Positions 10,036-39,540 of a stretch of DNA of 64,000 bases are shown here, in pieces (the first letter of the stretch is position 1; every line of letters starts with the position of its first letter). The stretch comes from an uncultured Lentisphaerales bacterium. Its GTDB lineage: Bacteria > Verrucomicrobiota > Lentisphaeria > JABSQK01 > UBA12247. The position numbers and the translations under genes were made by a program. Below the pieces are notes generated by a model. It had not been told where the DNA came from. It made no database searches and worked only from the letters and a program-made list of their open reading frames with translations. Location of the stretch: NCBI GenBank assembly GCA_943788985.1, contig CALSSJ010000011.1:128001-192000 (forward strand), read 5' to 3'.

Positions 10036-11292
10036 GTGACTGAACCTTGTCCAAAGTGTAACGCTCCTCTCACCATCGAGGCAGGCGCCTTGGAGCTGAC
10101 CTGCGAGGCATGTGGTACTGTGATTGAGCTCGACTTCGGAACAGGCGACGAAGAGTGCGAAGATGCGGAAACACAGGTGGATCACGAGCCAAACCCGAAG
10201 AATGACACCTCCTCGCGAGACTTGCACGCCTTTGCAGAAGCATCCGAGTTCGAATTCGAAGTAAACTCGTTTGCAGACCTTGTCCGCTCGAAAAAGGAAG
10301 GGCCAGCCGCAGACGTCAGCTTTCGCAGTATGACCGGTGGCCGTGTTGTGGCTGGTCAGCCCATTCGTGATATCAAAATTGCCAAACCCGTGAAAGCGGG
10401 AGTGATGGGCACGGGTTCTCACCGGGTGAACCGTGAGGACTTCCCGACTCAGGATTCGGTCACGACAGATATGCTCGATCGCTCACGGCTGGAAGCAGAC
10501 GAACTGGCCAAAGAACGTGCGGCGCTTGGGGCGGCGCGCGAGGAAGCAGGGAAATTGCGAGAGGCGATTGAAGCAGAGAAGGCTGACCTGGAGCGGCAGC
10601 GAGAAGAGCACAGTCTGCAGATCAAGCGCATCCAAAACGAGGCGCTTTCGGCGGTCGAGAAGGAAAGACATTTCGCCGAAGAATTTGAGCGTAAAGCCGA
10701 AGCTTTGGCAGAGAATGGAGACCAGAAGCTCAGGGCTGCGCAGGAGCGGGCAGAGCAATTGGCGAAGCGTGAGGCTGAGGAAAAAGCGCGGCATGATGCT
10801 CTGGTGAAAGAAAAGAGGCATGCGATTAAGGCCATCAAAAAGAAGATCATTGAGGTGGCCGAGCACGAAAAGAAGGTTGCTGACGAGGCGAGTCGCAAAG
10901 CTGCCGAAGAAGATCGCAAGCAAGGTGAATATGAGGCGATGCTGGAACGAGCCGCCGACAAGACTCGGGCTGAGGTGGACGCTGCGGCAGAGGAAAAGAA
11001 GAAAGCGTTGAAGGCGGCGAAGATTGACGCCGCGAAGAAAGAGGCTCGCGCCAGGCTCTTGGAGAAGAAGAAAGACCAAGCGCGCAAGGTGATAGCGAAG
11101 CAGAAGGAAGAGGAAGTTAAACGGCGTGAAGACGCGATCACCAGGGCGAAAGGGGAAGCTTTGATTAGGCAGAAAGAAGAGGCAGAGAAGAAACGCAACA
11201 AGGCCATTTCCGTAGGCGTGAATCAGGATGTAGACGACGAAATCCGCCGCATGGAGCAAGAGGCAATGGATGAGATTGGTGGTGACCGGTGA
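10036..11292 (+). CDS. Hypothetical protein with N-terminal zinc ribbon and long charged coiled coil
   Basis: CPKC...CEAC at the N-terminus; E/K/A/R-rich helical C-terminal two thirds. Confidence 0.7.
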   Translation: MTEPCPKCNAPLTIEAGALELTCEACGTVIELDFGTGDEECEDAETQVDHEPNPKNDTSSRDLHAFAEASEFEFEVNSFADLVRSKKEGPAADVSFRSMTGGRVVAGQPIRDIKIAKPVKAGVMGTGSHRVNREDFPTQDSVTTDMLDRSRLEADELAKERAALGAAREEAGKLREAIEAEKADLERQREEHSLQIKRIQNEALSAVEKERHFAEEFERKAEALAENGDQKLRAAQERAEQLAKREAEEKARHDALVKEKRHAIKAIKKKIIEVAEHEKKVADEASRKAAEEDRKQGEYEAMLERAADKTRAEVDAAAEEKKKALKAAKIDAAKKEARARLLEKKKDQARKVIAKQKEEEVKRREDAITRAKGEALIRQKEEAEKKRNKAISVGVNQDVDDEIRRMEQEAMDEIGGDR

Positions 11293-12797
11293 GTGGCGAA
11301 GCGAAGCCAGACAACGGTGAGGACAAGCCCACAAGCGGCGCTTCTTTACATCCTTCTGGTGGAGAAACTAAGGCCACTGAAGGCAAGCAGCCTGCTGACA
11401 CGTCTGCGAATCCCGCAGAGAAGGCAGCGGAAAATCCCGTAGCGGATAAGAAGGCCGCTGAGGACGAGAAGCCTGCTGACACGTCTGCGAATCCCGCGGA
11501 GAAGGCAGCGGAAAATCCCGTAGCGGATAAGAAGGCCGCTGAGGACGAGAAGCCTGCTGACACGTCTGCGAATCCCGCGGAGAAGGCAGCGGAAAATCCC
11601 GTAGCGGATGCCAAGGAAATCGCGGGCGAGAAGGCTGGCGAGAATGCCGAGATAAAGACAGCGGAGAAGTCGAAGCATCCCGAAAAACTGGATCCGCTGG
11701 CCGAAATTGAGCGGCAGGTAGAGGCAGAGCTGGCGGCGAAGAAAGCCAAGGATTCCGGTGTCGAGGTGCCACCCAGCGCAGAGGACGTACACAAGTCAAT
11801 TGAAGCAGAGCTAAACGCTGAGCTTGAGGCCGCGGCCGCCGCTCGGCGCACGCCCAAAGAGACTGAGAAGAAGACAGTCGAAGCTGGAACTGACTCGAAG
11901 GCCACCGCCAGCAAGGGGGCCGAGAAAGATGGCAAGCCGGCCGTTGGAAAGAACAAGCCAGCCGCTGGAAAAGGAAAGCCCGGTGCCGCTAAGAGCAAGC
12001 CAGGCACTGGAAAGGGCAAGCCAAAAGGTGCCAAGGACAAAGCCGAAGGCGGCAAGGCAGTGTCGCGCAAGAGCGGAGGTGCGCTAGCGAAGCGCAGGCC
12101 CGCGAGTGCTAAGACTCCTGAACAGGAAGCTGAGGAAGCTCGCAACAAGCAGATCGCCAGCAAGCAGGCCGAGATTACCCAGCAGATGAAGAGGAAGCAG
12201 CTAATCGTTTACGGTGTAATTACGCTGCTGACCGCTGTGATTGGCTACGTAATTCTGGGCGGGGACTCCAAGCCCGCCGCCGTCTCGTCACCGCCCCCGC
12301 AGCAGAGGCCTGCGGCGGCTCCGAAGGCCACGCAGAACGCGAGTAAAGATGCTCCCACACCGGCAGCCCAAGAGGCGGATTCGCTCCCTAAGCCAGCTGC
12401 TGCAACCAATTACAAGGTTAAACGCGTACTTCGAGCACTTGAAAAGAAGGCCGGGACGAAATTGCGATCGCAGGACTATATCGGGGCAATTAGCGTCTAT
12501 CGAGATGCCACGACCGCGACGCCAGAGTTGAAGGCGGACTGCGATAAAAGGATCGCCTTCATTGTCGAGAATAATCTTGAAGGCAGCGATCCGCTGCCAC
12601 TTATGGCAAAATGGGATGCCCTCAAGGACCAGGCCCGGGTGCATATCGCCTCAGAGAAGCCGGAGGATCTGCTCGTCGCAATCGGCTTGTTCAAAGCATT
12701 TGGCGAAGAGCATCCGTTGTTTGCCATGAAGGCGACAGAAAACGCGGGCAAGCTCGGGCAGCATTACTTCAAGGTCACCGGCGAGTTTCCGAAGTGA
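11289..12797 (+). CDS. Hypothetical single-pass membrane protein with low-complexity, repeat-containing N-terminus
   Basis: GTGA overlap with the previous gene; 27-aa repeats, K/G/A-rich segment, one TM helix (LIVYGVITLLTAVIGYVIL), helical C-domain. Confidence 0.7.
   Translation: MSGEAKPDNGEDKPTSGASLHPSGGETKATEGKQPADTSANPAEKAAENPVADKKAAEDEKPADTSANPAEKAAENPVADKKAAEDEKPADTSANPAEKAAENPVADAKEIAGEKAGENAEIKTAEKSKHPEKLDPLAEIERQVEAELAAKKAKDSGVEVPPSAEDVHKSIEAELNAELEAAAAARRTPKETEKKTVEAGTDSKATASKGAEKDGKPAVGKNKPAAGKGKPGAAKSKPGTGKGKPKGAKDKAEGGKAVSRKSGGALAKRRPASAKTPEQEAEEARNKQIASKQAEITQQMKRKQLIVYGVITLLTAVIGYVILGGDSKPAAVSSPPPQQRPAAAPKATQNASKDAPTPAAQEADSLPKPAAATNYKVKRVLRALEKKAGTKLRSQDYIGAISVYRDATTATPELKADCDKRIAFIVENNLEGSDPLPLMAKWDALKDQARVHIASEKPEDLLVAIGLFKAFGEEHPLFAMKATENAGKLGQHYFKVTGEFPK
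11389..11609 (+). repeat. 81-bp intragenic tandem repeat, about 2.7 near-identical copies
   Basis: CCTGCTGACACGTCTGCGAATCCCGC recurs at 11391, 11472 and 11553; encodes PADTSANPAEKAAENPVADKKAAEDEK. Confidence 0.95.
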
Positions 12798-14001: not shown

Positions 14002-14266
14002 GCCCCCGCTTTTGCGAACAAGTGGCACCCCTCTTCCTGCCGAGCTTTGCTCGGTTCGCCGTTAATCCATCAATTGTCCCAAAAGGATTAACCTAAGCCA
14101 GTCCATTCAGGGTGGTTCCAGCTCTCCTGCTGTGGCACTTTCTAATCGTCGCTGGACACATATACGGCCAGATGTGAGTTTTTTGTGGGTCACTCATGTT
14201 GCGCGCTTTGCCTCAGACACTACCGTGTATCCTCCATTTTTCTATACGAGCTTGCCAGAGGTTCTT

Positions 14267-15886
14267 ATGTATCGTTCAGCCGTACTGGTAGCGCTTGCTC
14301 TATGCTTGCCGCTGCCATCACTCTTCGCCAAGTCCGTGGCCGCATTCAAACGTCAGGGGCGGGGAATTCATGAAATCGTAGCGCTTGTCATCATTGGCGA
14401 TCGCTCCGTCGTCCAGGATCTGATGATCTGGGAAGACCTGCAAGCTGACGTGCTCAGCGCTCCGGTCTCAAAGCCAGACATTGAGACGATCGGCAAGACG
14501 ATCCATGGCTGGGTGACCGCACAAGGTTATATCTTCGCGACGGTACAGCATCGGGAAAAAGGGCTGGAGGATGGCTATCTCGCCTATACCGTCAGAGTTG
14601 GCAACCCCGGTGAGATCAGTGTGGTGGGGAACAAGTACTACTCTGCCGACCAGGTCATCAAGAATGTGGGCTTGACGTCCAACAGCAAGTTCGACTTCCG
14701 GTCGTTGCATGAAGATCTGTTTGCGCTGAATACCGAGCCATCTGCCACGGTCGATACCTCGATCGCGCCCAAAGACGAGGTGAAGCTAGCGGTCACAGAC
14801 GAGCTGCTGGTTCATGGCTCGCTGACGCTCAGCAATACGGGCTCACCTTTCGTCGGGGACTGGCGCCTCTGCAGTACGCTGGAACACCTTAATCTTACAA
14901 AACACGATGACATCCTCACTGCGGAGTGGCTCACCAATCCCGAGAACCTGGACGAAGTAAACGCTTTCACCGGCAGATACTATCGGCCTCTCGGCCCGAA
15001 GAACAACGTCACGTTCCACGCTGGCTGGAGCGAAACCGGGTTTAATGTGCTCGAGTTTGATATCCGCGGTCACGGGCGCTTCCTTGGGGCGCACTTCAAC
15101 CGCGTGGTTTACAGTAGCCCAAGGCACACGCTCGACGTGTCCGCAGGCTGGACCTACAAGCAGAGCGAGACGCAGATCGGCTTTGCCAACTCTAACCTCT
15201 ACGCGTCCGTGCTGCGTTTGAGCATGCCCAACGTGACGATTGGTTTCTCAGACAAGGTCTTTGATAGCCTAGGCGGCCGCACTTTCGCCTCCCTTGGTAT
15301 GCTCCGGAACTTCGCCGGCCACTTCGGTGCCTCAGGCATGGATGCTATCCGTCGGAGGTCCGCCAACGCAGACGGTAATCTGACCATCACTAAGTTTCGC
15401 CTGGCACGCTTTCAACGACTCTGCAAGGGGGTGACCTTGGTCGGGAAGATTGACTCTCAGTACACCAATGACTCGCTGGATCCTGTTTTGCAGAAACGCC
15501 TTGGCGGTGCGGACAGCGTGCGTGGATATAGCGAAAGTGAATTCAGCGGCGATAGTGGTTTCAACGGTACCTTGGAGTTGCGCAGCCCGTTGTTCAGCAA
15601 CTTCATCCCGCAACTTTCGCGCACTGAAGAGAAAATCGGAAGTGACCCGGATCATTGGAGCGTGCACCGCCTGCAAGCGATTGGCTTCTATGACTTCGGG
15701 CATATCCACCGGAATTATCGCTTTGCGGGATTAGGCGAGGACGACTCAGCATCTAGTCTGGGGCTGGGGGTTCGCTTCAGGATCTCTCCATACTCACAGC
15801 TGAAGTGCGACTACGGAGTGCCGCTGATTTCCACCGAGAGCAGCCGCGATGGTCGCGGTCATTTGTCCCTCAGTCTGCAGTTCTAA
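14267..15886 (+). CDS. ShlB/FhaC/HecB-family two-partner secretion outer membrane transporter (TpsB)
   Basis: Signal peptide from ATG 14267, POTRA-like region, LGGADSVRGY and FYDFG motifs, C-terminal Phe. Confidence 0.85.
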   Translation: MYRSAVLVALALCLPLPSLFAKSVAAFKRQGRGIHEIVALVIIGDRSVVQDLMIWEDLQADVLSAPVSKPDIETIGKTIHGWVTAQGYIFATVQHREKGLEDGYLAYTVRVGNPGEISVVGNKYYSADQVIKNVGLTSNSKFDFRSLHEDLFALNTEPSATVDTSIAPKDEVKLAVTDELLVHGSLTLSNTGSPFVGDWRLCSTLEHLNLTKHDDILTAEWLTNPENLDEVNAFTGRYYRPLGPKNNVTFHAGWSETGFNVLEFDIRGHGRFLGAHFNRVVYSSPRHTLDVSAGWTYKQSETQIGFANSNLYASVLRLSMPNVTIGFSDKVFDSLGGRTFASLGMLRNFAGHFGASGMDAIRRRSANADGNLTITKFRLARFQRLCKGVTLVGKIDSQYTNDSLDPVLQKRLGGADSVRGYSESEFSGDSGFNGTLELRSPLFSNFIPQLSRTEEKIGSDPDHWSVHRLQAIGFYDFGHIHRNYRFAGLGEDDSASSLGLGVRFRISPYSQLKCDYGVPLISTESSRDGRGHLSLSLQF

Positions 15887-16239
15887 AGAGAGAGCGCCGC
15901 TGCGCTCGCTTTAGGGAAAGTGCAAAGCTATGTCACTGCCATCCCATCGGCTACTTAGATCGTGACTTTACGGTGGTGATTTGATGAGTACTGTCGCCTG
16001 CAGCCTCGACGCTGGCGAAAATAGCCATTGGGGATTCTTTGTGCACTGTACCCCGGGCTAAAGCCCGTCAGTCACTTCCGGCTCAGCCGAGCTTGCGAGA
16101 TAGCCGAGGCAACCCCGCCGGCAACTGCCGCCTTAAGGCGGGACTCCGACAAGCGCCTCGAGGAGGCAGTAGTTTGGGCGCTTGTTTCAGGGGAGAAATG
16201 GCCGAATAACCAATAACCAATAGCTGTAGACCAGCGAGA

Positions 16240-16268
16240 AGCCAACGAACATTAGAAGCTCGTTGGCT
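16240..16268 (-). terminator. Stem-loop just downstream of the acetyl-CoA carboxylase gene (possible terminator)
   Basis: AGCCAACGA (16240-16248) and TCGTTGGCT (16260-16268) are perfect inverted repeats; no clear U-tract. Confidence 0.35.
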
Positions 16269-16277
16269 CTCACACCG

Positions 16278-19200
16278 CTAGACGGGACGCACGACGAAGA
16301 GCAGGTCTCCTGAGCTCACGGCCTGACCCGAAGGAGCAGCAATGCGGACTACCTGGAATTTTTTATCCGGATCATAGATCACTTCATCGGAGCGATTATA
16401 GTCGTTGAGCGTGATGGGACGAAAGACCTTCATGGCTTCGAGCAGGCACACGGTCTGGTCCGTCGTGACGACGTCTCCCGGTTCTACAAACTGAGGATCG
16501 CTGGGAGAAGCTTGGGTGTAGAATATGCCGGTACCAGAGGCCACGACTTTCAATTCATCCGTACCATCGATGCGCAGGGATTCGGCATCAAAGCCACCCT
16601 TGATGTCGCCGGCTGCTGCTTCGATCTCCGCACAGAGTTCGTTGCAGTCAATGCGCTTGAAGAATGCCGGCAGATAGCGCGTGTCGTAATCGCCAGCTAG
16701 GAAGACCTCGTCCTGAAGGACCCGGCAGACCAGTGGGATGTTGGTGCAGATCCCGCAGATTTTTACGGATTGGAGATAGCTGAGCAGTTTTGCGACGGCA
16801 TCGTCGCGGTCTTTTCCTTTGGCGATGATCTGGGCGATCATGCTGTCGTAATATGGCGGAATCTGCTTTCCCGTGGCGGCCATGGTAATGATGTCGACGC
16901 GGTCGTCTTCGGGAAACACGCACTCGGTGATTTCACCGGGGTGTGGTTCGAAGCTGACGTCACCATTGGCATCTACGACAGCTTTTTCGGCATTGACGCG
17001 AGCTTCGATCGCATAGCCAATTTCCTTGGGCTCAATCGCAGAGATCGAACGTCTTGCGGCGATATCAAATTGGCTGGTGACAATGTCCACATCGGAGACA
17101 ATTTCAGTCACGGGATGTTCGACCTGCAGGCGGGTATTCATCTCCATGAAGTAGGCTTCGCCAGACTCCAGGTCGAAGATGTACTCGACAGTGCCGGCAC
17201 CGATATAGTCGATGTCGTCTGCGATCGCGGCAGCGTTCTTGAACATCTGCTGCTTGAGTTTCTCGGGCAGCATCGTGGAGCTAGACTCTTCAAGAATTTT
17301 CTGGTTATTGCGCTGTACGGAGCAATCACGCAGCCCCAATACCTTGGTGGTGCCGTGGCCGTCACGCAGGATTTGGATCTCTACATGACGCAGGGAGACG
17401 ATGCATTTCTCGATATAGACATCGCTGTTGCCGAAGGCGCTTCGGGCTTCGGCTGAGATCTTGAGAAAAGACTCTTCAAGGAGGGCAGGGTCCTCGACGA
17501 TCTGAATCCCCTTTCCGCCACCGCCGTGGACGGCTTTCAGGATGATGGGGTAGTCAATGTTGTCGCAGATGTCTTTGGCCGCGGTCGCCTTGGTCACGAT
17601 ACCGTGGCTCCCGGGGACCACAGGAATTTTGAGCCGCAGGGCAGTGTTGATGGCGTTGGACTTGTTGCCCATCAACTGCATGCTGCGAGCGCTTGGCCCG
17701 AGGAAGTTGATGCCGTGGGCATGGCACATGGCGGAGAAATGCGGGTTCTCAGAGAGAAAGCCAATGCCGGGGTGAAGCGAATCGCACTGCTCGCGCTCGG
17801 CAATACGGACAACGCTGCCGGCGTTGAGATAGCTCTCATCCGAGGTGTTGCCACCGAGGCAGACTAGGGTGTCGTTGTCGCCGAGCATTTCTGCGGGCAC
17901 GGAATCCATATCCGCATCTGATTGGACGAGGACCACCTGAATGTCATTCTTCTGTGCGACGCGCACAAGCTTGACTGCGGTACACCCTCGGGCGTGTATC
18001 AAGACGCGCTTGACCGGCCGGAGCAGGTCCATCGAGTGGGTCATGGTGGCCATTTCCTGCTCTTCGGGCTCACTGCCGATATCGTCAAGGACTCCTTCCT
18101 TCAGGATGCGCATCAGGACGTTGGTCACAGACTCTTCGGCAATCGGGATCGCGCGATCGATTTCGCGGAGCTTGTCGTCCAAGTCGTCGACGAAGGGATG
18201 CCGGACGAGGCCTTGCATAGCACCCGGTGTCTCGGACAGATAGTTCGAGAGCGTAGAGGTGCTGGGCAGGTAGGCCGGAACCACGATTTGGCCGGCAAAT
18301 GGCATATTTGTGCCGGAAAAATAGTAGGTCTGTGCCAGTGGGTGGGTGACAAAGCTCGCCTGCGCGCCACCGGTACAGTCGCCAAACCCGAAGATGATGA
18401 TCGGCAGGTTATTATCCCGCACGAACCGCGTGATTCGGTCGTTTAGGATGGCCATCGAAAAGAGTGACCCTGCTCCTTCCTTGGTCTGCATACCACCGGA
18501 TGAGACGAAAGCGACCACGGCGTGTCGTTTGCGTGCGCAGGTGACGAGCAAGCGACAAAATTTCTCGCAGCTGGCCATATCGAAGGCACCAGCTTGAAAG
18601 TCGAGATTGGAAATGGCGACGCCAACTTTGCGCCGGAGTGGGCCCTTTAGCTGGGCGATTCCAGTGACTAGACCGCATGGCTTGATGTCACGGGACAGCG
18701 CTTGCTCGATAGACAGGCGAAAACCGGGGAACTTAACCGGATCGGCGGTCATTAGGCTGGCGTCGGTTTCTGCGAATGTGGAGAAGAAGGTTTCCTGGAT
18801 GGAGCTGACATTGCTGACGCGCTTCTTTTTGACCCGCTGCAGAAGATCATGAATGAGGATATCTTGGTAGGCTATGGCCAAGCGATTCCAAAAATCCTTC
18901 ATACCCAGATCACGAGGGGTGATGCGCCCCAAATATTCGCGACCGGCAATTTCGCATTCGTAGTACTCAGGCAGCAGGTGCTCGAAGGTAAAGGTGATGA
19001 TCGCAAACAGTGGTTCGGGTATGCGCGGGAATACGACTTTCTTCCAATCTTCTACGGACTTCAAGATACGCCCGCGCTGAGAATGGTGGATGAAATGATT
19101 CAGCCACAGATAGAATTGGTCTTTGAGCTGGTTCTCAATGCGCCGGCTGCCCTCGGTCGCAGGTTGCTTGGCAGCGAGTTCCTTGGCTGCTTTCTCGAGC

Positions 19201-20825
19201 GGCTCTTCGATCAGGCGGCTGATGGAGTCGCGCGAGATCACGTTCTCGTCCTTCACTTCACGCGCAATGGCGATCTGATTGTGGATGATGTTGTCGTAGA
19301 TAAGGTCGAAGATCAGCACATTCTGACACTCTTCGATGAAGCCGTCGCGAAGCTCATCGTGCAGCAGGAGGTCTAGGACCGTGGCGTTGTCGCCGGTGCG
19401 TGCCTTGCGTCCTGGGTTAGAGCGCAGATGATCAATCAGCAGCAACAGGCTGCTGTGGGCACCGGACTTCCAGAGACTGTAGAGGTAAAAGATGACTTGC
19501 AGATAGAGATCGTTCCGCGCCTGCATGAACTTGGTGGACGGATTGCCGCGAAGCAGCTTCATCAGCCGGCCGCGCTCGGCACCCAGCGCATGCCGACGAT
19601 CCATGAATACTTTCCAAGCCTTACTCAGGTGATCATCGTAGCGAATCTCGAGAGGGTTCTCGACCCACTGCTGGAAGGCGTTAGCGTGCTCCATGCGGCG
19701 TCTTTCTGAGAGTTCGCCCTGGGGCACTTCTACGGTTGTGAGCCGGCCGTAGCTCTCGATTGTTGTTGATTGAATGCGCTGGCGCAGGCCGAGGTAGCGC
19801 AGGTAGCGGTAGGTGGATCCAAAGACGCCGAACTGGCTCGGGTTGCGCGGGCGCAACATGCCGGACTGTCGCTCAAACTGTGAGAGTGCGTCGCCGGGCT
19901 CGAGGAAGCGATAGACGCTGCGCGAGTAATGGTCAAAGATCTCCGGACGCTCGCTGACGAATAGGCCAGCGGTCTCTTCGAGGGAGGCGATGCCGCTAGC
20001 GATCGCATCTGTGAGATTTCCTTCGTTCTCTTTCTCGCCGGGGACGTAATCGATAATGCCGTCTACGTAGCCCTGCTTATACAGCTCGTAGGATGAGACG
20101 CCGACGTACTTGGCGCATTCCTGCCATGACAAGTCGTACTTGCGGGCGATGCTTGCCATTCCCGGTGGCTGAATCGTGTTAAACACGCCGTCGCGGACTG
20201 TCAGTAGCAGATTTGTGGTGGCAAGTGGGATTGCGCCGCCAGAATATCCGGCGCCAATCACGATCCCGATTGTTGGGACGTGTAAGAGCGCCATTTCGGC
20301 GATCAGCCGTGAAATCGCGTGTGCTTGATTATCGCGATTGGCCTGGTCACCTGCGTCTGCCCCGGGGGTGTCAATGAGCGTGATCACTGGAAGCGAGAAC
20401 TCGGCAAACTTCTGCACCAGTTCCACGGCTTGGAGGTGGTGAGAGGGGAGCCAGACGCCGTTGTTGGCGGTTCGCTCCTGCCCCAGCACGCCAACTCGCC
20501 GCGGGCTGCCATTGAATAAAATTTCGACCTCGGCTGCGTAAAGCGGGCCATCAATGGTCTCGCGCAGGATCGTGCCAAGGCGCTTTACTGTGGCTTTGGC
20601 CCCTGGTCTGTTCTTCTGTTCAGAAGGCGTGACTGAGCGTGCAATGTAGGCGTCTACAGGCAGCGCTTGTAGCGACTTCACTTGGGCGTGAATGGTTCTC
20701 GCTGGGAGCACGCCCCGCAAGCGTCTCGAGGCTGTCGTGTGGAGGCGGGGGAAAAATGCAGAATCGTTGGATTCCTGCTCCGCCATCTGGAAAAGTTGAT
20801 CAAGCCCGCTCGTTCTCTTGGCCAT
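16278..20825 (-). CDS. Single-chain multidomain acetyl/acyl-CoA carboxylase (AccA-like CT, linker, AccD-like CT, biotin carboxylase, BCCP)
   Basis: AccA-like LIDTPGA and GAGYSGGA; AccD-like SSGGMQTKEG and DCTGGAQASF; BC motifs HPGIGFLSEN, KAVHGGGGKG, RDCSVQRNNQK, EMNTRLQVEHPVTE and YYDSMIAQ; biotinylation motif EAMKV. Confidence 0.92.
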   Translation of the reverse strand: MAKRTSGLDQLFQMAEQESNDSAFFPRLHTTASRRLRGVLPARTIHAQVKSLQALPVDAYIARSVTPSEQKNRPGAKATVKRLGTILRETIDGPLYAAEVEILFNGSPRRVGVLGQERTANNGVWLPSHHLQAVELVQKFAEFSLPVITLIDTPGADAGDQANRDNQAHAISRLIAEMALLHVPTIGIVIGAGYSGGAIPLATTNLLLTVRDGVFNTIQPPGMASIARKYDLSWQECAKYVGVSSYELYKQGYVDGIIDYVPGEKENEGNLTDAIASGIASLEETAGLFVSERPEIFDHYSRSVYRFLEPGDALSQFERQSGMLRPRNPSQFGVFGSTYRYLRYLGLRQRIQSTTIESYGRLTTVEVPQGELSERRRMEHANAFQQWVENPLEIRYDDHLSKAWKVFMDRRHALGAERGRLMKLLRGNPSTKFMQARNDLYLQVIFYLYSLWKSGAHSSLLLLIDHLRSNPGRKARTGDNATVLDLLLHDELRDGFIEECQNVLIFDLIYDNIIHNQIAIAREVKDENVISRDSISRLIEEPLEKAAKELAAKQPATEGSRRIENQLKDQFYLWLNHFIHHSQRGRILKSVEDWKKVVFPRIPEPLFAIITFTFEHLLPEYYECEIAGREYLGRITPRDLGMKDFWNRLAIAYQDILIHDLLQRVKKKRVSNVSSIQETFFSTFAETDASLMTADPVKFPGFRLSIEQALSRDIKPCGLVTGIAQLKGPLRRKVGVAISNLDFQAGAFDMASCEKFCRLLVTCARKRHAVVAFVSSGGMQTKEGAGSLFSMAILNDRITRFVRDNNLPIIIFGFGDCTGGAQASFVTHPLAQTYYFSGTNMPFAGQIVVPAYLPSTSTLSNYLSETPGAMQGLVRHPFVDDLDDKLREIDRAIPIAEESVTNVLMRILKEGVLDDIGSEPEEQEMATMTHSMDLLRPVKRVLIHARGCTAVKLVRVAQKNDIQVVLVQSDADMDSVPAEMLGDNDTLVCLGGNTSDESYLNAGSVVRIAEREQCDSLHPGIGFLSENPHFSAMCHAHGINFLGPSARSMQLMGNKSNAINTALRLKIPVVPGSHGIVTKATAAKDICDNIDYPIILKAVHGGGGKGIQIVEDPALLEESFLKISAEARSAFGNSDVYIEKCIVSLRHVEIQILRDGHGTTKVLGLRDCSVQRNNQKILEESSSTMLPEKLKQQMFKNAAAIADDIDYIGAGTVEYIFDLESGEAYFMEMNTRLQVEHPVTEIVSDVDIVTSQFDIAARRSISAIEPKEIGYAIEARVNAEKAVVDANGDVSFEPHPGEITECVFPEDDRVDIITMAATGKQIPPYYDSMIAQIIAKGKDRDDAVAKLLSYLQSVKICGICTNIPLVCRVLQDEVFLAGDYDTRYLPAFFKRIDCNELCAEIEAAAGDIKGGFDAESLRIDGTDELKVVASGTGIFYTQASPSDPQFVEPGDVVTTDQTVCLLEAMKVFRPITLNDYNRSDEVIYDPDKKFQVVRIAAPSGQAVSSGDLLFVVRPV

Positions 20826-21001
20826 TGTCTTCCCGCATCAAATTAAAGGTCTGGTGGGCGGGGTCGTCCCGCACCGAAAGGGTACCGCGCAGCAACGGCT
20901 TTGCAAACCTGAACGGAGGCTTCTGGGGCTCGTCTTGGTCATTGACTGGGCTAAGTTTCCATCCCTTACACTAGAGAGCCGCATTTGCACAGCAGAGCAA
21001 G

Positions 21002-25252: not shown

Positions 25253-25711
25253 ATGGAAAAACGCGCTATTTCAAAATACCGTCGAATCTCGGCGTTTAAA
25301 GCACGTGATATTACTCGCCTTATTCAAGGCAAGTCTATCGACGAAGCGCTACGCATGCTTGCGTTTGCTCCGCAGAAGGCTGCCCGGCTGGTGGAGAAAA
25401 CACTACGCTCTGCAATAGCAAATTATGAGCAAGCGGTGGACGGCGATGTAGACCGCTCGACACTGCTTGTCAAGGAAGCACTGATCGGCGAAGGCCCGTC
25501 AATGAAGCGTATTCGCCCTAAGGCTCGGGGGATGGCTGGCCGCATTATTAAGCGATCCAGTCACATCCGGATTACAGTCTGGGACGGAGAGCAAGCGAAA
25601 GACCTGGTTGCGGACTACTTCGACGATGACGAAGAAGAGACCCTCGCCGGCGATGAAAATGCGGAGACGGAAGCTTCCGTCGCCGATGACGATCAAGAAA
25701 ACGAAGGATAG
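25253..25711 (+). CDS. rplV: 50S ribosomal protein L22 with acidic C-terminal extension
   Basis: RISAFKAR and EGPSMKRIRPKARGMAGRIIKRSSHI motifs; SD AGGAG. Confidence 0.95.
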   Translation: MEKRAISKYRRISAFKARDITRLIQGKSIDEALRMLAFAPQKAARLVEKTLRSAIANYEQAVDGDVDRSTLLVKEALIGEGPSMKRIRPKARGMAGRIIKRSSHIRITVWDGEQAKDLVADYFDDDEEETLAGDENAETEASVADDDQENEG

Positions 25712-25725
25712 GGAGGTAGCAGCCC

Positions 25726-26448
25726 GTGGGCCAAAAAGTAAATCCTATCGGTTTCCGCGTATCGGTAACCAAAGATTGGCGCAGTCGCTGGTTCGCTCGT
25801 AAGCGCGAGTTCGGTGACATGCTGCACGAGGACCTGAAGATGCGTCAGTTCGTGCAGACGCAGCTGTCTCAGGCAGCGGTGTCGCGGATCCAAATTGAAC
25901 GTTTCGCCAGCCGGATTCGTCTCACCATTCACACGGCTCGTCCGGGAATGGTGTTTGGACGGAAGCGCGCTGAATATGACGCGTTGAAGAATTCCCTGTT
26001 CAAGCTATTAGGCACGAAAGACAAGGACGTCTATGTCGACGTTGTCGAAGTGCGTTATCCTGAGCTTGAAGCACAACTCGTGGCCCAGAATGTGGCCATG
26101 CAGCTCGAACGTCGTGTCGGTTTTCGCCGGGCGATGAAGAAGGCGCTACAGACGAGCATGGATATGGGAGCAGTCGGAATCAAGATTCGTTGCGCAGGTC
26201 GCTTGGGCGGCGCGGAACTAGCTCGCACAGAAGAGTATCGCGATGGCAAAGTGCCATTGCATACCTTGCGTGCGGACGTGCAGTATGGCTTTTGTGAAAG
26301 CGTGACTACTGCCGGTTTGATTGGTGTAAAAGTATGGCTATGTCGGCCGGATAATATGGAGGAAAAGAACAATGCCTTTGATGCCAAAAAGGGTAAAGCA
26401 TCGCAAGGTTCAAAGAGGAAAAATTCGAGGCAACGCGACCAGCGGTAA
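25726..26448 (+). CDS. rpsC: 30S ribosomal protein S3
   Basis: [27 protein letters not shown] and PLHTLRAD motifs. Confidence 0.97.
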
Positions 26449-26785
26449 CGTCCTCAATTTTGGAGACTTTGGGTTGCAGGTTCTGGAGCGCGGCTTTATC
26501 ACAAACCGCCAGATTGAAGCTGCACGTATTGCGATTACGCGCCACATGCGCCGACGTGGTCAGGTCTGGATCCGGATGTTCCCGGACAAGCCGATTTCGA
26601 AAAAGCCACTTGAGACGCGTATGGGTAAGGGAAAGGGTAACACAGAGGCCTGGGTGGCTTGTGTGAAACCTGGCCGTGTTATCTTTGAAATTCGCGGTTG
26701 TTCCGAGACTGTGGCACGTGAAGCGCTCGCTTTGGGTGCTGCCAAACTGGGGCATCGTTGCAAAATGTTGTCGCGTGAGGGTTGA
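26372..26785 (+). CDS. rplP: 50S ribosomal protein L16
   Basis: [21 protein letters not shown] and [12 protein letters not shown] motifs. Confidence 0.97.
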
Positions 26786-26788
26786 TCG

Positions 26789-26989
26789 ATGAAAGGTAGC
26801 GAAGTTGCAGAACTGACGGAGTTGGAACTGACGGCGCGTCTGGAGGAGACGCAGCGTGAGTTATTCAACCTTCGCGTCCAAGCCGCCATTGGTGCTTTGG
26901 AGAATACTGCTCGGGTACGAGCCCTTCGTCGTGATGTTGCGCGTCTGAGATCGGAAGAGACCAAGCGCAATAAGACGGCTGCGAACTAG
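26789..26989 (+). CDS. rpmC: 50S ribosomal protein L29
   Basis: ELFNLRVQ...LENTARVRALRRDVAR; position after rplP. Confidence 0.93.
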   Translation: MKGSEVAELTELELTARLEETQRELFNLRVQAAIGALENTARVRALRRDVARLRSEETKRNKTAAN

Positions 26990-27002
26990 GAGAAATGCTG
27001 AG

Positions 27003-27283
27003 ATGAGTGAAGCTACTGAAAAAAAGCGCGGCCTGCGTAAGCAGCGTACCGGCGTGGTCGTCAGTAATAAAGGGGATAAGACAATCGTCGTGCAAGTGAC
27101 ACGCCGTGCCGCGCATTCCGCTCTATAAAAAGGTGATCAGTCTGACCAAGAAATTTCATGCCCATGATGAAACCAATGACGCCAATATCGGCGACACGGT
27201 GACCATCGTGGAGGACACGTCCACTGAGCAAGCTTAAACGCTGGCGGATGACTGCAGTTGTTCGTCGCGCAGTGGAGGACTGA
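27003..27283 (+). CDS. rpsQ: 30S ribosomal protein S17 (two apparent +1 indels)
   Basis: [30 protein letters not shown] and [12 protein letters not shown] are recovered after removing extra bases near 27116 and 27213. Confidence 0.92.
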
Positions 27284-27286
27284 GCC

Positions 27287-27652
27287 ATGATTCAAATGCA
27301 GACCATAATGGACATCGCTGACAACTCTGGCGCACGCCGGGTGATGGCGATTACAGTCTTGGGGCAACAGCGCAAAGTCGCTCGCGTTGGTGATGTCGTG
27401 ACTGCGGCTGTCAAAGAAGCCTCTCCGAATGGAGCTGTCAAGAAGGGCGATGTCGTCCGTGTTGTAGTGGTTCGTACGCGCTCGGCAATTCGTCGCGAGG
27501 ACGGCTCGTACTTACGCTTCGACCGTAACGCGGGCGTTGTCATCGATGACGGTGGCAACCCACGCGGAACCCGTATTTTCGGGCCTGTGGCTCGTGAACT
27601 TCGGGATTCCAACTATATGCGTATCGTCTCGCTGGCGCCGGAGGTGCTGTGA
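27287..27652 (+). CDS. rplN: 50S ribosomal protein L14
   Basis: ADNSGAR, VKKGDVV and [13 protein letters not shown] motifs. Confidence 0.97.
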
Positions 27653-27916
27653 TGCGGCGGATATGGAAGGGTGACACCGTCGAGGTAATCAGCGGCCGTG
27701 CTGTTGGACAGACCGGCCATGTCCTCGTAGTGGATTACAAGAAGGAGCAAGTGATCGTGGAGGGAGTAAATACCCGCATGGTTGCTACTCGTCCTGGGTC
27801 CCAGTTCCCCCGGTGGGCTGATCGAGCGTGAGTGCCCGATCCACTTGTCGAACGTACTGGTGACGGTCGAATCCCCCGAGCACAAAAAAGAGTTGGAACG
27901 CAAGGGCTTGCTCTAA
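27652..27916 (+). CDS. rplX: 50S ribosomal protein L24 (one apparent +1 indel)
   Basis: KGDTVEVISG and VIVEGVN, then GGLIERECPIHLSNV after removing one C at 27807-27811. Confidence 0.9.
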
Positions 27917-27938
27917 GCCTGCTTGAGGAGACAAAACG

Positions 27939-28477
27939 ATGAGTGTATTACTTGAACAATATCGTTCGGAGATGATTCCGAAGCTGCAGGCCTCGCGCTC
28001 CTACGGGAACGTGATGCAGGTGCCGAAGCTTGAGAAAATCGTCCTGAACTGCGGAATCTCGTCACAGCGTGACCGCGACATGTTTGCGAATGCCCAGCTC
28101 GCGCTGAGTGACATTACTGGCCAGCGGCCGGTGATTACAAAGACACGCATGAACATCGCCAACTTTAAGCTCCGTGAGGGCATGAATGTCGGTGTGTGTG
28201 TCACGTTGCGTAAAGAACGCATGTACGACTTTTACTACCGGCTGACGCGCGTGGCTCTGCCGCGAGGTGCGTGACTTTCGCGGTGTGGGCAGCCAAGGCC
28301 TTTGACGGCCGCGGCAACTACAGCATGGGCTTGGAAGACGTGACCATTTTTACTGAAGTTAACCCCGATAAATTAAAGTACACGATCGGCATGAGCATCG
28401 CTATTGTGACAACTGCTGCGACCAACGAAGAAGGTCTGGAGTTGTTGACAATGCTTGGCATGCCGTTCGAGAAATAA
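27939..28477 (+). CDS. rplE: 50S ribosomal protein L5 (two apparent +1 indels)
   Basis: [36 protein letters not shown] and [10 protein letters not shown] are recovered after fixing about 28266 and about 28288. Confidence 0.93.
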
Positions 28478-28490
28478 GGAGACCGGACCT

Positions 28491-28676
28491 GTGGCACGGA
28501 AAGCACTTGTCGCCAAAGCGAAGCGTAAGCCAAAATTCTCTACCCGTCAGTACAACCGCTGCCGCACCTGTGGTCGTGCCCGGGCGTATATCCGAAAGTT
28601 TCAAGTCTGCCGTATCTGCTTCCGCGAACTTGCCTCCCGTGGCGAGATTCCGGGTGTAGTCAAGGCGAGCTGGTAG
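28491..28676 (+). CDS. rpsN: 30S ribosomal protein S14, zinc-binding type Z
   Basis: GTG start after SD AAGGAG; RCRTCGR...[20 protein letters not shown]. Confidence 0.95.
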
Positions 28677-28687
28677 GAGGAATAATT

Positions 28688-29080
28688 ATGATTAGCGATC
28701 CTATTGCAGACATGCTGACGCGAGTTCGCAACGCCTCTCGCGCCGCGCATTCCGTGGTCGAGATGCCGTCTTCCATCCTCAAAGTAGCGATTGCCGACAC
28801 GCTCAAGCGTGAAGGCTACATTCGTGGCTATGAAGTTTCGGAAGATGGTGCGAAGCGGACCTTGAAGGTAAGCCTGAAGTATTTTAAGGAAGAATCGGTC
28901 ATCGCTGGCATCGAGCGCGTCAGTCGCTCTTCTCAGCGTGTGTATGTGGGCCATGAATCTGTTCCTCGGACGCTTGGCGGTCTTGGAATTGTGATTCTCT
29001 CGACGGCTCAGGGCGTGATTACCGGCAAAGATGCCAGGAATCGCGGCGTGGGCGGCGAAGTCCTCTGCCGAGTCTGGTAG
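28688..29080 (+). CDS. rpsH: 30S ribosomal protein S8
   Basis: DPIADMLTRVRNA, GLGIVILST and GGEVLCRVW motifs. Confidence 0.97.
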   Translation: MISDPIADMLTRVRNASRAAHSVVEMPSSILKVAIADTLKREGYIRGYEVSEDGAKRTLKVSLKYFKEESVIAGIERVSRSSQRVYVGHESVPRTLGGLGIVILSTAQGVITGKDARNRGVGGEVLCRVW

Positions 29081-29096
29081 AATAGGGGGATAAAAT

Positions 29097-29628
29097 ATGT
29101 CACGTATTGGAAATCAACCTATCGCGCTCAACGGTGCGACTGCCTCGTTCAAGGACGGCGTCATCTCCGTAAAGGGAGCGAAAGGTGAACTGCAGCACAT
29201 CGTGCCAGAGGCCATTGTGGTGGAGATCACTGACGCGGAAATTCGGGTAAAACGCCCAAATGACCACCGGGGAAACGAAAGCCCAACACGGTTTGTATCG
29301 GTCCTTGATCAATAATATGGTCATTGGCGTGAGCACCGGCTTCAAGAAGACGTTACTGATCGAAGGCGTGGGCTATCGTGCCGCGCTGAAAGGGAAGAAC
29401 CTCGGATTGACTTTGGGGCATTCGCACCCGATCGATTACCAAGTGCCTGAAGGGATCACCTTTACTGTGCCGAACAATACAACGATCGAGATCGATGGTA
29501 TTGACAAGCAGCAAGTGGGTCAGGTTGCAGCGATTATTCGTGAGTTCCGTCCCCCCGAGCCTTATAAGGGCAAGGGGATTCGGTATTCTGACGAACATAT
29601 TCGCCGCAAAGAAGGCAAGACGGTCTGA
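29097..29628 (+). CDS. rplF: 50S ribosomal protein L6 (one apparent +1 indel)
   Basis: MSRIGNQPI; then [17 protein letters not shown] and [11 protein letters not shown] after a frameshift near 29270. Confidence 0.94.
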
Positions 29629-29646
29629 TAAGAGTAGGAGCAAGAT

Positions 29647-30010
29647 ATGCCTAAGATTGATCGCAAAGCGAAGCGCCTCGGGCGCCGCACTCGCCTTCCG
29701 CCGCCGAATTTCAGGAACCAGCGAGATCCCTCGTATGGCTGTGTTCGTCAGCGACCGGCACGTATATGTGCAGTTTATTGATGATGTGTCCGGTGTCACT
29801 GTGGCATCATGTTCCACGCGTGTGAAGGAAGTCCGTGAGGGCAACCAGAGCGGAGACGTCGCAGGTGCTGCCACAGTAGGCAAACTTGGTGCTGAGCGGC
29901 TGCAAGCCGCTGGAATCAGCAAGGTCGTTTTCGACCGCGGCGGATTTCGGTTTCACGGTCGCGTGAAGGCAGTGGCCGAGGCAGCTCGTGAAGCTGGCCT
30001 GCAGTTCTAA
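29647..30010 (+). CDS. rplR: 50S ribosomal protein L18 (one apparent +1 indel)
   Basis: SD AGGAG and ATG 29647; PRMAVFVSDRHVYVQFIDD and VFDRGGFRFHGRVKA motifs; extra C near 29698. Confidence 0.94.
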
Positions 30011-36452: not shown

Positions 36453-37874
36453 ATGTTTCGCAGTAACGAATGTGTTGCCTATACGTGGGATTCGCAAGGG
36501 CGCTGTTGCGGAGTTCGCATCGAGCGGCGTGGCGAGCGCTGTACGGTTGCGGGCCACTGGCGTGGAGCCAAGGTCGGTGCGCAGCCACTCGCGACAGTCC
36601 TAGAGTCGTCGCTGGCACATCTGAAGATTCGTAGTGAAACGACCGTCTTGATCGGCGGTGATTTTCGCAAGGCTTTCTGTGTGGACATGCGGATGCCGAA
36701 GATGTCCTCGGAACTGTTGCACTCAGCCGTCGGATTCGAGCTGGCCAAGTTTTCCCCGCTGGCTACTGAAGACCTGAAGTGGGGCTATCGCGTGCTTAGC
36801 AAGAGCGGCATGGACGCGCTCCATGTGCGAGTGGGCTTCTTCCCCGCCTCTGACCACGATCATTGGTTGGAGGCTGCCAGTGCGTTGCCTAGCGGTGTGG
36901 ACATGATTATTCCGGCAGGGGCCACACTGGACCCGCAGTTTGCAGAACAGGACGTCGGCTTTGTGGATGAAGAAGGCGAAAGTGCCTATATCCTGCATCG
37001 AAAGGAGAGCGGCGAGCGTGAAGTGCAGATTGCCGCCGATGCCGACCGTGACGATGTATTTGGCCTTGGCAAAACCCCTCTCGCTGCACCGAATCTCATG
37101 CCTGGCAGGCTGCTGGAACTCAATGCAGCCGAACAACGCAGCTTTGCGCCTGCGGTGTTACTGGGAATGTACGGCGTTTCTTCGTCCTGCCCGGCAGATG
37201 CCCGAACTTGGCTCTCTGTGCCGAAGAGCATGAAGCCTCCTCGCAACCGGACGCAGAAGACAGTGAGCCTGACGCTCGCGGTCTACTTGCTCGGACTGGG
37301 GCTGGCTTTTCTCGGTGGTTGGCTGATGATGAAGAATCGCGACCTAGCGTTCGTCAATGAGAAGCGCGTAGCGTTGGAGGAGGAGGTGCGCCGCCTGACT
37401 CCTGAGGTTAAGCCCACTCACGAAGTGGACCTGAACGAAGAGATGCGCCAAGAACTCGAAGAAGTCCGCGCAAGCTTTCTGCCGATGGGCGTAGGGCTTT
37501 CAGCGATTACCGGACGGACAGCCCATGAGCTTTGGGGGCATTCGTTTCAGTGGAACACCGGCGAGATCAAGGTCGAGCTGATCGCTGATGCCGACATGAT
37601 GGACAAGATTGGTTTCTTGGAGCGCACGCGTGTTTTGGCAGACTTTAACGTAGATATTGCTCGGCAGAAAGGGCAGTTTCGCTACACTGTGAATTGCCGG
37701 CTGATGCGTGACTCCGAAATGGGGGAGGCTGGCGTCGACGTAAATTCGATCACATTCTTGAAAACAAGCGTGCCGGACGACGTAGTGCCGGATGACATCC
37801 CCGATTCAGATGGAGAAGAGCTAGACAGCGGGCTGCCCTCCTGGCATCTCCCCCCCCTAGCCTTAAAGAAATGA
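36453..37874 (+). CDS. GspL/PilM-PilN-like type II secretion assembly platform protein (true end probably 37979)
   Basis: Cytoplasmic actin-like N-domain pattern (MPKMSSELLHSAVGFEL..FSPL), single TM helix, coiled coil; first gene of the secretin/ATPase cluster. Confidence 0.6.
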   Translation: MFRSNECVAYTWDSQGRCCGVRIERRGERCTVAGHWRGAKVGAQPLATVLESSLAHLKIRSETTVLIGGDFRKAFCVDMRMPKMSSELLHSAVGFELAKFSPLATEDLKWGYRVLSKSGMDALHVRVGFFPASDHDHWLEAASALPSGVDMIIPAGATLDPQFAEQDVGFVDEEGESAYILHRKESGEREVQIAADADRDDVFGLGKTPLAAPNLMPGRLLELNAAEQRSFAPAVLLGMYGVSSSCPADARTWLSVPKSMKPPRNRTQKTVSLTLAVYLLGLGLAFLGGWLMMKNRDLAFVNEKRVALEEEVRRLTPEVKPTHEVDLNEEMRQELEEVRASFLPMGVGLSAITGRTAHELWGHSFQWNTGEIKVELIADADMMDKIGFLERTRVLADFNVDIARQKGQFRYTVNCRLMRDSEMGEAGVDVNSITFLKTSVPDDVVPDDIPDSDGEELDSGLPSWHLPPLALKK

Positions 37875-37978
37875 AACCGGCCCCCAACTACCCGTAGTAT
37901 GCCAGCGTCGTCAAATGGGGCTTCCCGCCTACTGCCGCCGCCACCACCGCCACCTCCTGTCTTGCCGGGTGGCAACTA

Positions 37979-38617
37979 ATGGGAACGCGTTTCTATCTTT
38001 ACAGTCTCATGCTTTTGTGCTTGGGTGGTTATCTGCTGGCAGAGTGGAAGGGGATCTCTTTCTCTTCGTTCAATGTGGCAACCGATGCCAAAATTAGGCA
38101 AGCTCTGGCTCGTGTCGATAGCCTGCAGAAGGATCGAGTACGGTACATCCAGATTCACAATCAGGAGTTGGAGAAACGGCAGCAGTTGCAGGGGATGACC
38201 GCCGGCCTCTGGCTCGAGACGACACGAATTCCGACGAACATCATCCAGAAGGAGTTGGACCAAATGGCAAGACGGTCTGAGCTGGATCTTGGTAAGCTTG
38301 GTGCGCCACGTGAAATCGAGCTGAGTTCCAACATCCGTGCGGTCGATATTTCAGTGCAGTGCACGACGAACATTGAGGCGTTTGCCAAGTTCACGCATGC
38401 TATCGATGGTCACACCCCCATTCTGTTCTGGGAAAGCTGCCACATTCGCCCTAAGGATTTGAAGAACCCGGTAGAGCTGACCGTGAAGGGGAAGATTCGG
38501 GCGCTGGTGTTGACCAAAGCTGCCCAGGAATATCTGAACGAAGCAGTCGGGGCCGAGGCGATTCTGAGTGTGGGGGAAGAAGCTGAAGTGACGAATCCGG
38601 AGGGGGGACTCCCGTGA
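37979..38617 (+). CDS. GspM/PilO-like protein
   Basis: N-terminal TM helix, coiled coil, ferredoxin-like C-domain pattern; operon context. Confidence 0.55.
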   Translation: MGTRFYLYSLMLLCLGGYLLAEWKGISFSSFNVATDAKIRQALARVDSLQKDRVRYIQIHNQELEKRQQLQGMTAGLWLETTRIPTNIIQKELDQMARRSELDLGKLGAPREIELSSNIRAVDISVQCTTNIEAFAKFTHAIDGHTPILFWESCHIRPKDLKNPVELTVKGKIRALVLTKAAQEYLNEAVGAEAILSVGEEAEVTNPEGGLP

Positions 38618-39516: not shown

Positions 39517-39540
39517 TTTAGTGCTTGTAAAAAGGATTGT

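Follow-up and report, generated by a model that had tools for sequence, protein, structure and literature searches.

The question raised by this locus is whether one open reading frame of an uncultured Lentisphaerales bacterium encodes an entire acetyl-CoA carboxylase (ACC), and whether that design is new. The window analyzed is the whole 64,000-nucleotide stretch of contig CALSSJ010000011.1 from position 128,001 to 192,000. The initial annotation of this DNA proposed a single-chain ACC, independently assembled, with an unusual domain order. We hold with high confidence that the gene is intact and orthologous to Shewanella AccS, and that it is likely the sole acetyl-CoA carboxylase of the cell, providing malonyl-CoA for type II fatty-acid synthesis.

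Reading Frame and Assembly

The gene is a single intact reading frame of 1515 amino acids on the minus strand, running from 20825 to 16278 of the window. The initial annotation had described this uninterrupted frame correctly, without its strand. It had also named stops between the domains in sequencing reads as evidence that would count against it, and none lies in the contigs compared. The junctions between domains are bridged by contigs of two other DNA runs, X10 (one contig across 18091-21000) and X12 (one contig across 16000-18428), with no stop or indel. Three substitutions inside the frame were found in this comparison (A1399V, T679A and one silent change), and no indel was listed. Neither X10 nor X12 was flagged as a possible source.

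These contigs argue against an assembly or sequencing artefact that joined separate acc genes, which is almost certainly not the explanation. Nothing about this gene favors an artefact, and three of 88 related loci (L004, L005 and L009) have shorter closed frames. However, 116 of 121 family proteins are 1500-1699 residues long, and the CT-alpha, BC and BCCP motifs lie within one frame at 67 of the 88 loci. In addition, joining canonical genes cannot yield the 400-residue central domain described below.

Much of the gene is also spanned by contigs from two RNA libraries, a coverage that does not by itself imply transcription. A terminator scan of 15800-16400 identified a single weak site, distant from the stop codon and within chance.

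Domain Layout and Catalytic Residues

The domain order CTalpha-linker-CTbeta-BC-BCCP proposed in the initial annotation agrees with the domain profile matches: a CT-alpha half, a helical domain of about 400 residues, a CT-beta half without a zinc finger, biotin carboxylase and BCCP (Table 1). Residues 120-268 matched ACCA (PF03255, E 3e-29), residues 682-827 weakly matched accD (TIGR00515, E 5e-11), residues 938-1388 matched biotin carboxylase and residues 1426-1512 matched BCCP (TIGR00531), with Lys1466 in an EAMK motif. Thus the full biotin carboxylase and the C-terminal EAMK BCCP of that annotation are both present. No individual domain reached its NCBIfam cut-off, and CT-beta is divergent (42 bits against a cut-off of 317 bits). 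A CxxC..CxxC zinc finger was sought at residues 280-745 and was found in none of 97 aligned family members, the window protein among them, consistent with the earlier description of CT-beta as lacking an N-terminal zinc finger.

Table 1. Positions of the gene and its domains in the window.
Feature	Position	Strand	Evidence
accS-type single-chain acetyl-CoA carboxylase gene, 1515 aa	16278..20825	-	Reading frame; matches PDB 9KKM chain A over aa 8-1515
N-terminal segment, aa 1-115, family-conserved, runs into CT-alpha fold	20481..20825	-	Family alignment; model; aligned to 9KKM from residue 8
CT-alpha (AccA-like) core, aa 116-280; G196-G197 = E. coli AccA G206-G207	19986..20480	-	Profile matches, alignment
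Central helical domain, aa 281-680, family-specific, also in Shewanella AccS	18786..19985	-	Sequence match only to 9KKM; model; Foldseek only 9KKM
CT-beta (AccD-like), aa 681-910, no zinc finger; G819-G820 = E. coli AccD G204-G205	18096..18785	-	Profile match, alignment
CT-BC linker, aa 911-936, poorly conserved, predicted flexible	18018..18095	-	pLDDT; low conservation
Biotin carboxylase (AccC-like), aa 937-1392	16650..18017	-	41% identity to E. coli AccC over 450 columns; active-site residues kept
BC-BCCP linker, aa 1393-1424	16554..16649	-	Gap between domain matches
BCCP, aa 1425-1515; biotin-accepting Lys1466 in EAMK, codon 16428-16430	16281..16553	-	Profile match, alignment

The pLDDT of the CT-BC linker is below 50 at residues 912-935, a stretch that coincides with the truncated end of the model. 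The BC-BCCP linker may serve as a swinging arm.

The catalytic domains are homologous to those of the heteromeric E. coli ACC, with identities of 35% to AccA (138 columns), 25% to AccD (138 columns), 32% to AccB (81 columns) and 41% to AccC (450 columns). Positions in these four E. coli proteins which we take to be catalytic residues were compared, and they are kept. The equivalents of AccC K116, K159, G165, G166, E201, H209, K238, E276, E288, N290, R292, Q294, E296 and R338, of AccA G206-G207, of AccD G204-G205 and of AccB K122 are identical in the window protein and throughout the alignment (97 of 97 sequences). Judged from this alignment, the BC and CT catalytic residues and the biotin-accepting lysine are intact. 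The canonical ANRGE of biotin carboxylase is HARGC in the AccS family.

The Match to Shewanella AccS

Residues 8-1515 of the window protein matched residues 16-1515 of PDB 9KKM chain A with 1721.6 bits, and the next chain scored 346.8. The 9KKM entry, released 2025-11-19, shows the holoenzyme of Shewanella oneidensis as a dimer solved by cryo-EM, the organism being given by the entry title and the length of 1517 residues equalling that of SO_0840. PDB 9W4A is a further entry for this enzyme, and the window protein matches both entries over residues 8-1515. A model of residues 1-935 matched 9KKM with E 4e-79, a TM score of 0.81 and 47% identity over 936 columns; all other structural matches listed had TM scores of at most 0.23 by query length. 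The two arrangements are similar, not identical, because the rmsd is 5.8 A over residues 1-935 and, when the central domain is taken alone, 7.9 A.

AccS, which also bears the name "acetyl-CoA carboxylase multifunctional enzyme AccADCB", is SO_0840, a protein of 1517 residues that is present in place of AccABCD in S. oneidensis according to the available text of PMC4793157. In the available text of PMC11602165, AccS is biotinylated, and poor growth at low accS expression is cured either by accS or by accA, accD and accBC from E. coli. The evidence in these portions of the two papers is genetic and from biotinylation, rather than from enzyme kinetics. AccS was thus named by 2016, its genetics followed in 2024 and the cryo-EM dimer was released in 2025. 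No publication on 9KKM or 9W4A was found in a literature search from which subscription papers were mostly out of reach.

The claim of a novel architecture therefore falls, as the initial annotation had itself foreseen for an architecture already characterized: Shewanella AccS already has a name, a genetic study and a cryo-EM structure. The annotation's claim of independent assembly, which may be true of the family as a whole, does not apply to the window gene, an ortholog of Shewanella AccS. The two proteins share their length, domain order, central domain and lack of a zinc finger in the aligned region. On sequence grounds, the window gene is a new member of the AccS enzyme type, from a different phylum.

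Several differences from S. oneidensis were observed. First, the host belongs to another phylum, in a Lentisphaeria order. Secondly, the window gene has no divergent LysR-type regulator gene beside it, the upstream divergent gene encoding a sulfatase, and LysR_substrate (PF03466) had no match in the assembly. For these reasons the AccR control described in PMC11602165 is likely absent here. Third, S. oneidensis has a stand-alone AccB, SO_0511, according to the text available of PMC4793157, whereas no spare stand-alone AccB was found in the window genome. One candidate, on contig C15, was rejected because it belongs to an oadA-like gene as its biotin domain; besides the BCCP of the window protein, the genome's sole EAMK domain is in an oadGBA-like decarboxylase.

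The Central Helical Domain and Other ACC Designs

The initial annotation had noted about 350 unassigned, helical-looking residues. The region is predicted to be helical, as it proposed, but is nearer 400 residues long (about 281-680). Its model is almost wholly helical and folded (pLDDT 84.6), and Pfam gave nothing significant (best E 0.04). By sequence its sole match was 9KKM (E 3e-80). Foldseek also matched it to 9KKM (E 4e-20, TM 0.67, 37% identity) and gave no significant match outside the AccS family, the next having E 0.23; eukaryotic and long-chain single-chain enzymes are therefore not among its significant structural matches. ESM Atlas returned no usable match, which bears on neither absence nor novelty. 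A degenerate AccA or AccD remnant was rejected (hhalign probability below 1% against both), and the two halves of the domain gave 8% against each other. The novel scaffold proposed earlier thus has no significant Foldseek match outside the family, but it was already present in Shewanella AccS.

The window protein differs from E. coli AccABCD in being a single chain rather than four, in lacking the C4 zinc finger of AccD and in having a 400-residue central domain that matches neither AccA nor AccD by profile. The CT halves come first, unlike in eukaryotic ACC. Single-chain bacterial long-chain acyl-CoA carboxylases have the order BC-BCCP-CT, and the window protein differs from them in the same way. 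The difference from eukaryotic ACC claimed by the initial annotation is confirmed, and the available text of PMC11602165 states the same of AccS. In E. coli, the AccD N-terminus and zinc domain touch BC and BCCP (bioRxiv 10.1101/2024.05.28.596234). The central helical domain may act as spacer and scaffold, allowing CT-alpha and CT-beta to share a chain; the E. coli complex is kept together by these AccD contacts, for which covalent linkage would substitute. By analogy with 9KKM, the enzyme would be a homodimer.

Role in the Cell

A search of the assembly, which is 83.6% complete, for separate accABCD genes, as the initial annotation had suggested, found no separate accA, accD or accC and no other CT or BC gene. 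Both birA and fabD were over cut-off. Acetyl-CoA carboxylation by the window protein is predicted as its likely activity.

The same architecture could instead act on another or a broader substrate, such as propionyl-CoA or long-chain acyl-CoA, like other single-chain bacterial acyl-CoA carboxylases. The distance of CT-beta from canonical AccD and the 47% identity to the Shewanella CT half, which leaves room for drift, would allow this. It is nevertheless highly unlikely, as this is the sole CT found in a genome bearing fabD, and the fused gene alternates with canonical accA/accD within the order. Also, the best CT structural matches after 9KKM were CT subunits of ACC, with PCC, MCC and the single-chain carboxylase 5FIF ranking lower.

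Canonical acc genes could lie unassembled because of the incompleteness of the genome, and the window gene could then be an accessory, recently acquired enzyme. None of five window neighbors is shared with 80 related loci and the family is patchy, with the fused gene in four of 301 genomes sampled from the phylum, both of which fit such a history. Its probability is very slight, since it requires the absence of all three of accA, accD and accC from the assembly. In the same Lentisphaeria order, accA and accD were matched only through the fused gene in nine of 15 genomes, and stand-alone accD was over cut-off in the other six; the eight other fused-gene genomes (86-95% complete) also have no stand-alone accA or accD. 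In addition, the GC content (0.566) and GC3 (0.69) match those of ileS (0.58 and 0.70), and the nearest tree rows are copies from the same order. The preferred reading remains the sole ACC.

Two unrooted trees without Shewanella were built, a FastTree tree of 83 rows (five of 88 being omitted as too short) and an IQ-TREE tree of 24 chosen rows. In both, the window copy lies apart from gamma-proteobacterial copies and shares an unresolved fork with copies from its own order, from Desulfuromonadia and from Planctomycetota. No donor is claimed from such trees.

Significance

As a discovery the gene carries little weight, its enzyme type being already named, genetically studied and solved. What remains new is the range, a Lentisphaeria order, whereas the available text of PMC11602165 confines AccS to some gamma-proteobacteria. 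The AccS family looks new because databases mislabel it (e.g., as "carbamoyl-phosphate synthase large subunit") and none of the 25 NCBIfam models among the matches listed covers it. One-gene ACCs are useful for raising malonyl-CoA in engineered cells, and artificial fusions are being built (PMC12362589). For such work a natural ortholog, roughly half identical, adds to the one-gene ACCs available. A broader proposal, for and against which we are evenly balanced, is that AccS, rather than being a peculiarity of gamma-proteobacteria, would be a third, separately assembled ACC design which moved between phyla (Lentisphaeria, Desulfuromonadia and Planctomycetota) and took the place of the four-subunit enzyme within part of the order. 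Its helical domain would have a fold found nowhere else and would substitute for the contacts that AccD makes through its N-terminus and zinc domain. The domain may also be a regulatory hub that arose independently of the central domain of eukaryotes, and in this host it would operate without AccR.

Identification as a known single-chain ACC

The one-chain acetyl-CoA carboxylase (ACC) architecture of the window protein is already known and structurally solved. Residues 8-1515 matched chain A of PDB entry 9KKM (also 9W4A) with 1721.6 bits, while the next-best PDB chain scored 346.8 bits and covered the biotin carboxylase (BC) domain alone. Chain A is named "acetyl-CoA carboxylase multifunctional enzyme AccADCB" (1517 aa), and the entry, released on 2025-11-19, is titled as a cryo-EM holoenzyme dimer of the E1238A mutant from Shewanella oneidensis. 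Assuming that the alignment keeps the +2 offset seen at its end, E1238 would correspond to E1236 of the window protein. An AlphaFold2 model of aa 1-935 (pLDDT 85.9, pTM 0.85) also matched 9KKM (E 4e-79, TM 0.81, 47% identity). The literature search found no publication describing the 9KKM/9W4A structure. According to passages of PMC4793157, accS (SO_0840, 1517 aa) is a single S. oneidensis gene in place of accABCD. A passage of PMC11602165 describes AccS homologues as limited to Shewanella and a few gamma-proteobacterial genera, a passage of PMC10470608 confirms that two carboxylases are biotinylated, SO0840 being one of them, and Shewanella single-chain ACCs are mentioned in part of PMC12362589. 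The novelty that the initial annotation proposed for this architecture is thus not borne out.

The profile scans gave the same domain order that had been read from the sequence: AccA-like, AccD-like, BC and biotin domain (BCCP). The single ORF with a central stretch lacking assignment also stood, but the length of that stretch is about 400 residues rather than the 350 first estimated. The AccD-like part had been described as lacking a Zn finger, and a CxxC..CxxC motif sought within residues 280-745 occurred in 0 of 97 aligned family sequences, which indicates that the AccD zinc finger is missing family-wide. The first ATG is the likely start, since the family alignment retains the conserved D9, F12, A15 and E16 and begins about 8 residues ahead of D9.

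Coordinates of the single-chain ACC, its domains and other genes discussed
Feature	Location	Strand	Remarks
Two charged, low-complexity ORFs following ileS	window 10036-12797	+	Read from translations
ShlB/FhaC/HecB-family outer-membrane transporter gene	window 14132-15886	+	Convergent with accS
accS-type single-chain ACC ORF	window 20825 to 16278	-	1515 residues; uninterrupted frame, no internal stop
AccA-like domain	aa 120-268		Profile scan
No domain assignment	aa 281-680		About 400 residues
AccD-like domain	aa 682-827		Profile scan, weak match
Full biotin carboxylase	aa 938-1388		Profile scan
BCCP	aa 1426-1512		Profile scan
Ribosomal protein cluster (presumed): rplV, rpsC, rplP, rplN and following	window 25253-30010	+	
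Sodium-pumping decarboxylase genes: oadG-like, oadB, oadA-like	L090:5008-8257 (G000:C15, ~37000-40260), host assembly	-	oadB, TIGR01109 above cut-off

Reality and distribution of the fused gene

Of 24 listed sequencing runs, 20 contained all or part of the window stretch. These runs come from marine, estuarine and salt-marsh samples, and eight were flagged as possible sources; contigs of four unflagged runs were aligned to the window. One contig of run X10 covers 18091-21000 and one of run X12 covers 16000-18428. Every domain junction is therefore bridged and the fusion is real; that it arose from assembly or sequencing is hardly credible. No indels were listed inside the ORF in the contigs of the four runs, and three substitutions were found (A1399V, T679A and one silent). 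In the non-coding sequence upstream, one base at window 20963 is missing in contigs of three of the four runs, which may be a misassembled base of the window or variation between strains.

A protein search with aa 1-930, confined to proteins of 833-2652 aa, returned at least 1355 proteins at E <=1e-20 among 8000 scored candidates, and 116 of 121 homologous proteins examined were 1500-1699 aa long. CT-alpha, BC and BCCP motifs lay within one frame in 67 of 88 related loci; of the remainder, 17 reach the locus end, one is full-length with a motif variant and three have shorter closed frames. The latter (L004, L005 and L009, Desulfobacterota-type) have CT-beta frames closed at both ends of 1161, 1031 and 1331 aa, respectively, and could be split genes, frameshifts or assembly errors. 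The pairs L004/L014 and L010/L011 suggest two copies within single assemblies.

Within the order, accA and accD were matched through the fused gene alone in 9 of 15 genomes (the host's included). Stand-alone accD scored above cut-off in the other six, five of them also with accA. This split runs along families, so the cases are not independent. A search of 26 genomes belonging to the class's other orders did not detect the fused gene, which turned up in 4 of 301 genomes in a phylum-wide sample. When species genomes were scanned with aa 600-900, 269 relatives emerged; Desulfuromonadia, Planctomycetota and many Oceanospirillaceae are among the best 80. In unrooted trees, which name no donor, copies from the same order, Desulfuromonadia and Planctomycetota share an unresolved fork with the window copy, and the gamma-proteobacterial copies lie apart.

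Role in the host and proposed mechanism

The gene stands alone, with the convergent ShlB/FhaC-like transporter gene on one side and a divergent sulfatase gene on the other; no passenger gene partner was evident adjoining the transporter gene. Its GC and GC3 equal host values. LysR_substrate (PF03466) had 0 matches in the host's 4.6-Mb, 83.6% complete assembly, and no LysR regulator was found there; 10 of 14 control genomes had matches. In the first of the ORFs after ileS (418 aa), a long stretch is rich in K, E and A and a CxxC..CxxC motif lies at the N-terminus; the second (502 aa) is predicted to have one membrane segment and carries a tandem repeat close to its beginning.

The window protein is most likely the housekeeping ACC, as judged from sequence, and the function first guessed is probably right. 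Searches with each domain (tblastn) found no second carboxyltransferase (CT) or BC in the 4.58-Mb assembly, 83.6% complete, where the sole other significant match was 23% identity to the ATP-grasp part; family searches (accD, accA, Carboxyl_trans) gave no match beyond the accS-type gene. The separate acc genes for which a search had been proposed were thus not seen, and an accessory role alongside a canonical ACC in the unassembled part of the genome is most unlikely. Both birA and fabD scored above cut-off. Seven biotin/lipoyl matches were found, with EAMK in two: the accS-type gene and the tail of the oadA-like gene of the oadGBA cluster. The 553-aa catalytic part and biotin domain of the latter are in different frames, with the shift within the linker; this break may be an assembly error or real.

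The window protein and 97 of 97 aligned sequences have identical residues at the positions that align with the active site of E. coli BC, with the glycine pairs of both CT halves and with the lysine that carries biotin, all of which we take to have catalytic roles. E. coli E12, R16 and E23 are replaced by C948, K952 and K959, the first two replacements being family-wide. A different acyl-CoA substrate is very unlikely. By homology, BirA would biotinylate Lys1466, BC would carboxylate biotin using ATP and bicarbonate, the tethered BCCP would bring the carboxylated biotin to the CT site, and malonyl-CoA would pass to FabD. The protein may be a dimer, as in 9KKM.

Central domain

Taken alone, the central domain matched 9KKM in both a sequence search (E 3e-80) and a fold search (E 4e-20, TM 0.67, rmsd 7.9 A); besides 9KKM, the fold search gave no match below E 0.2, and comparison with E. 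coli AccA and AccD detected no kinship. It is predicted to be folded and helical, and is less conserved than the catalytic cores, with 25 invariant columns among 98 alignment rows. An insertion of 110-113 aa occurs in 17 of 119 homologues (P0060, P0080, P0088 and 14 others) after the position of residue 476 (window ~19398); this subtype is 1635-1665 aa long, and the window protein lacks the insertion.

According to part of bioRxiv 10.1101/2024.05.28.596234, the E. coli filament is built by the zinc domain and N-terminus of AccD, which also bind BC and BCCP. Covalent linkage and the central domain may have taken over this job, which fits the loss of those AccD parts here. It is about as likely as not that the family represents a third ACC design, spread across phyla, in which the unique central domain serves a regulatory function.
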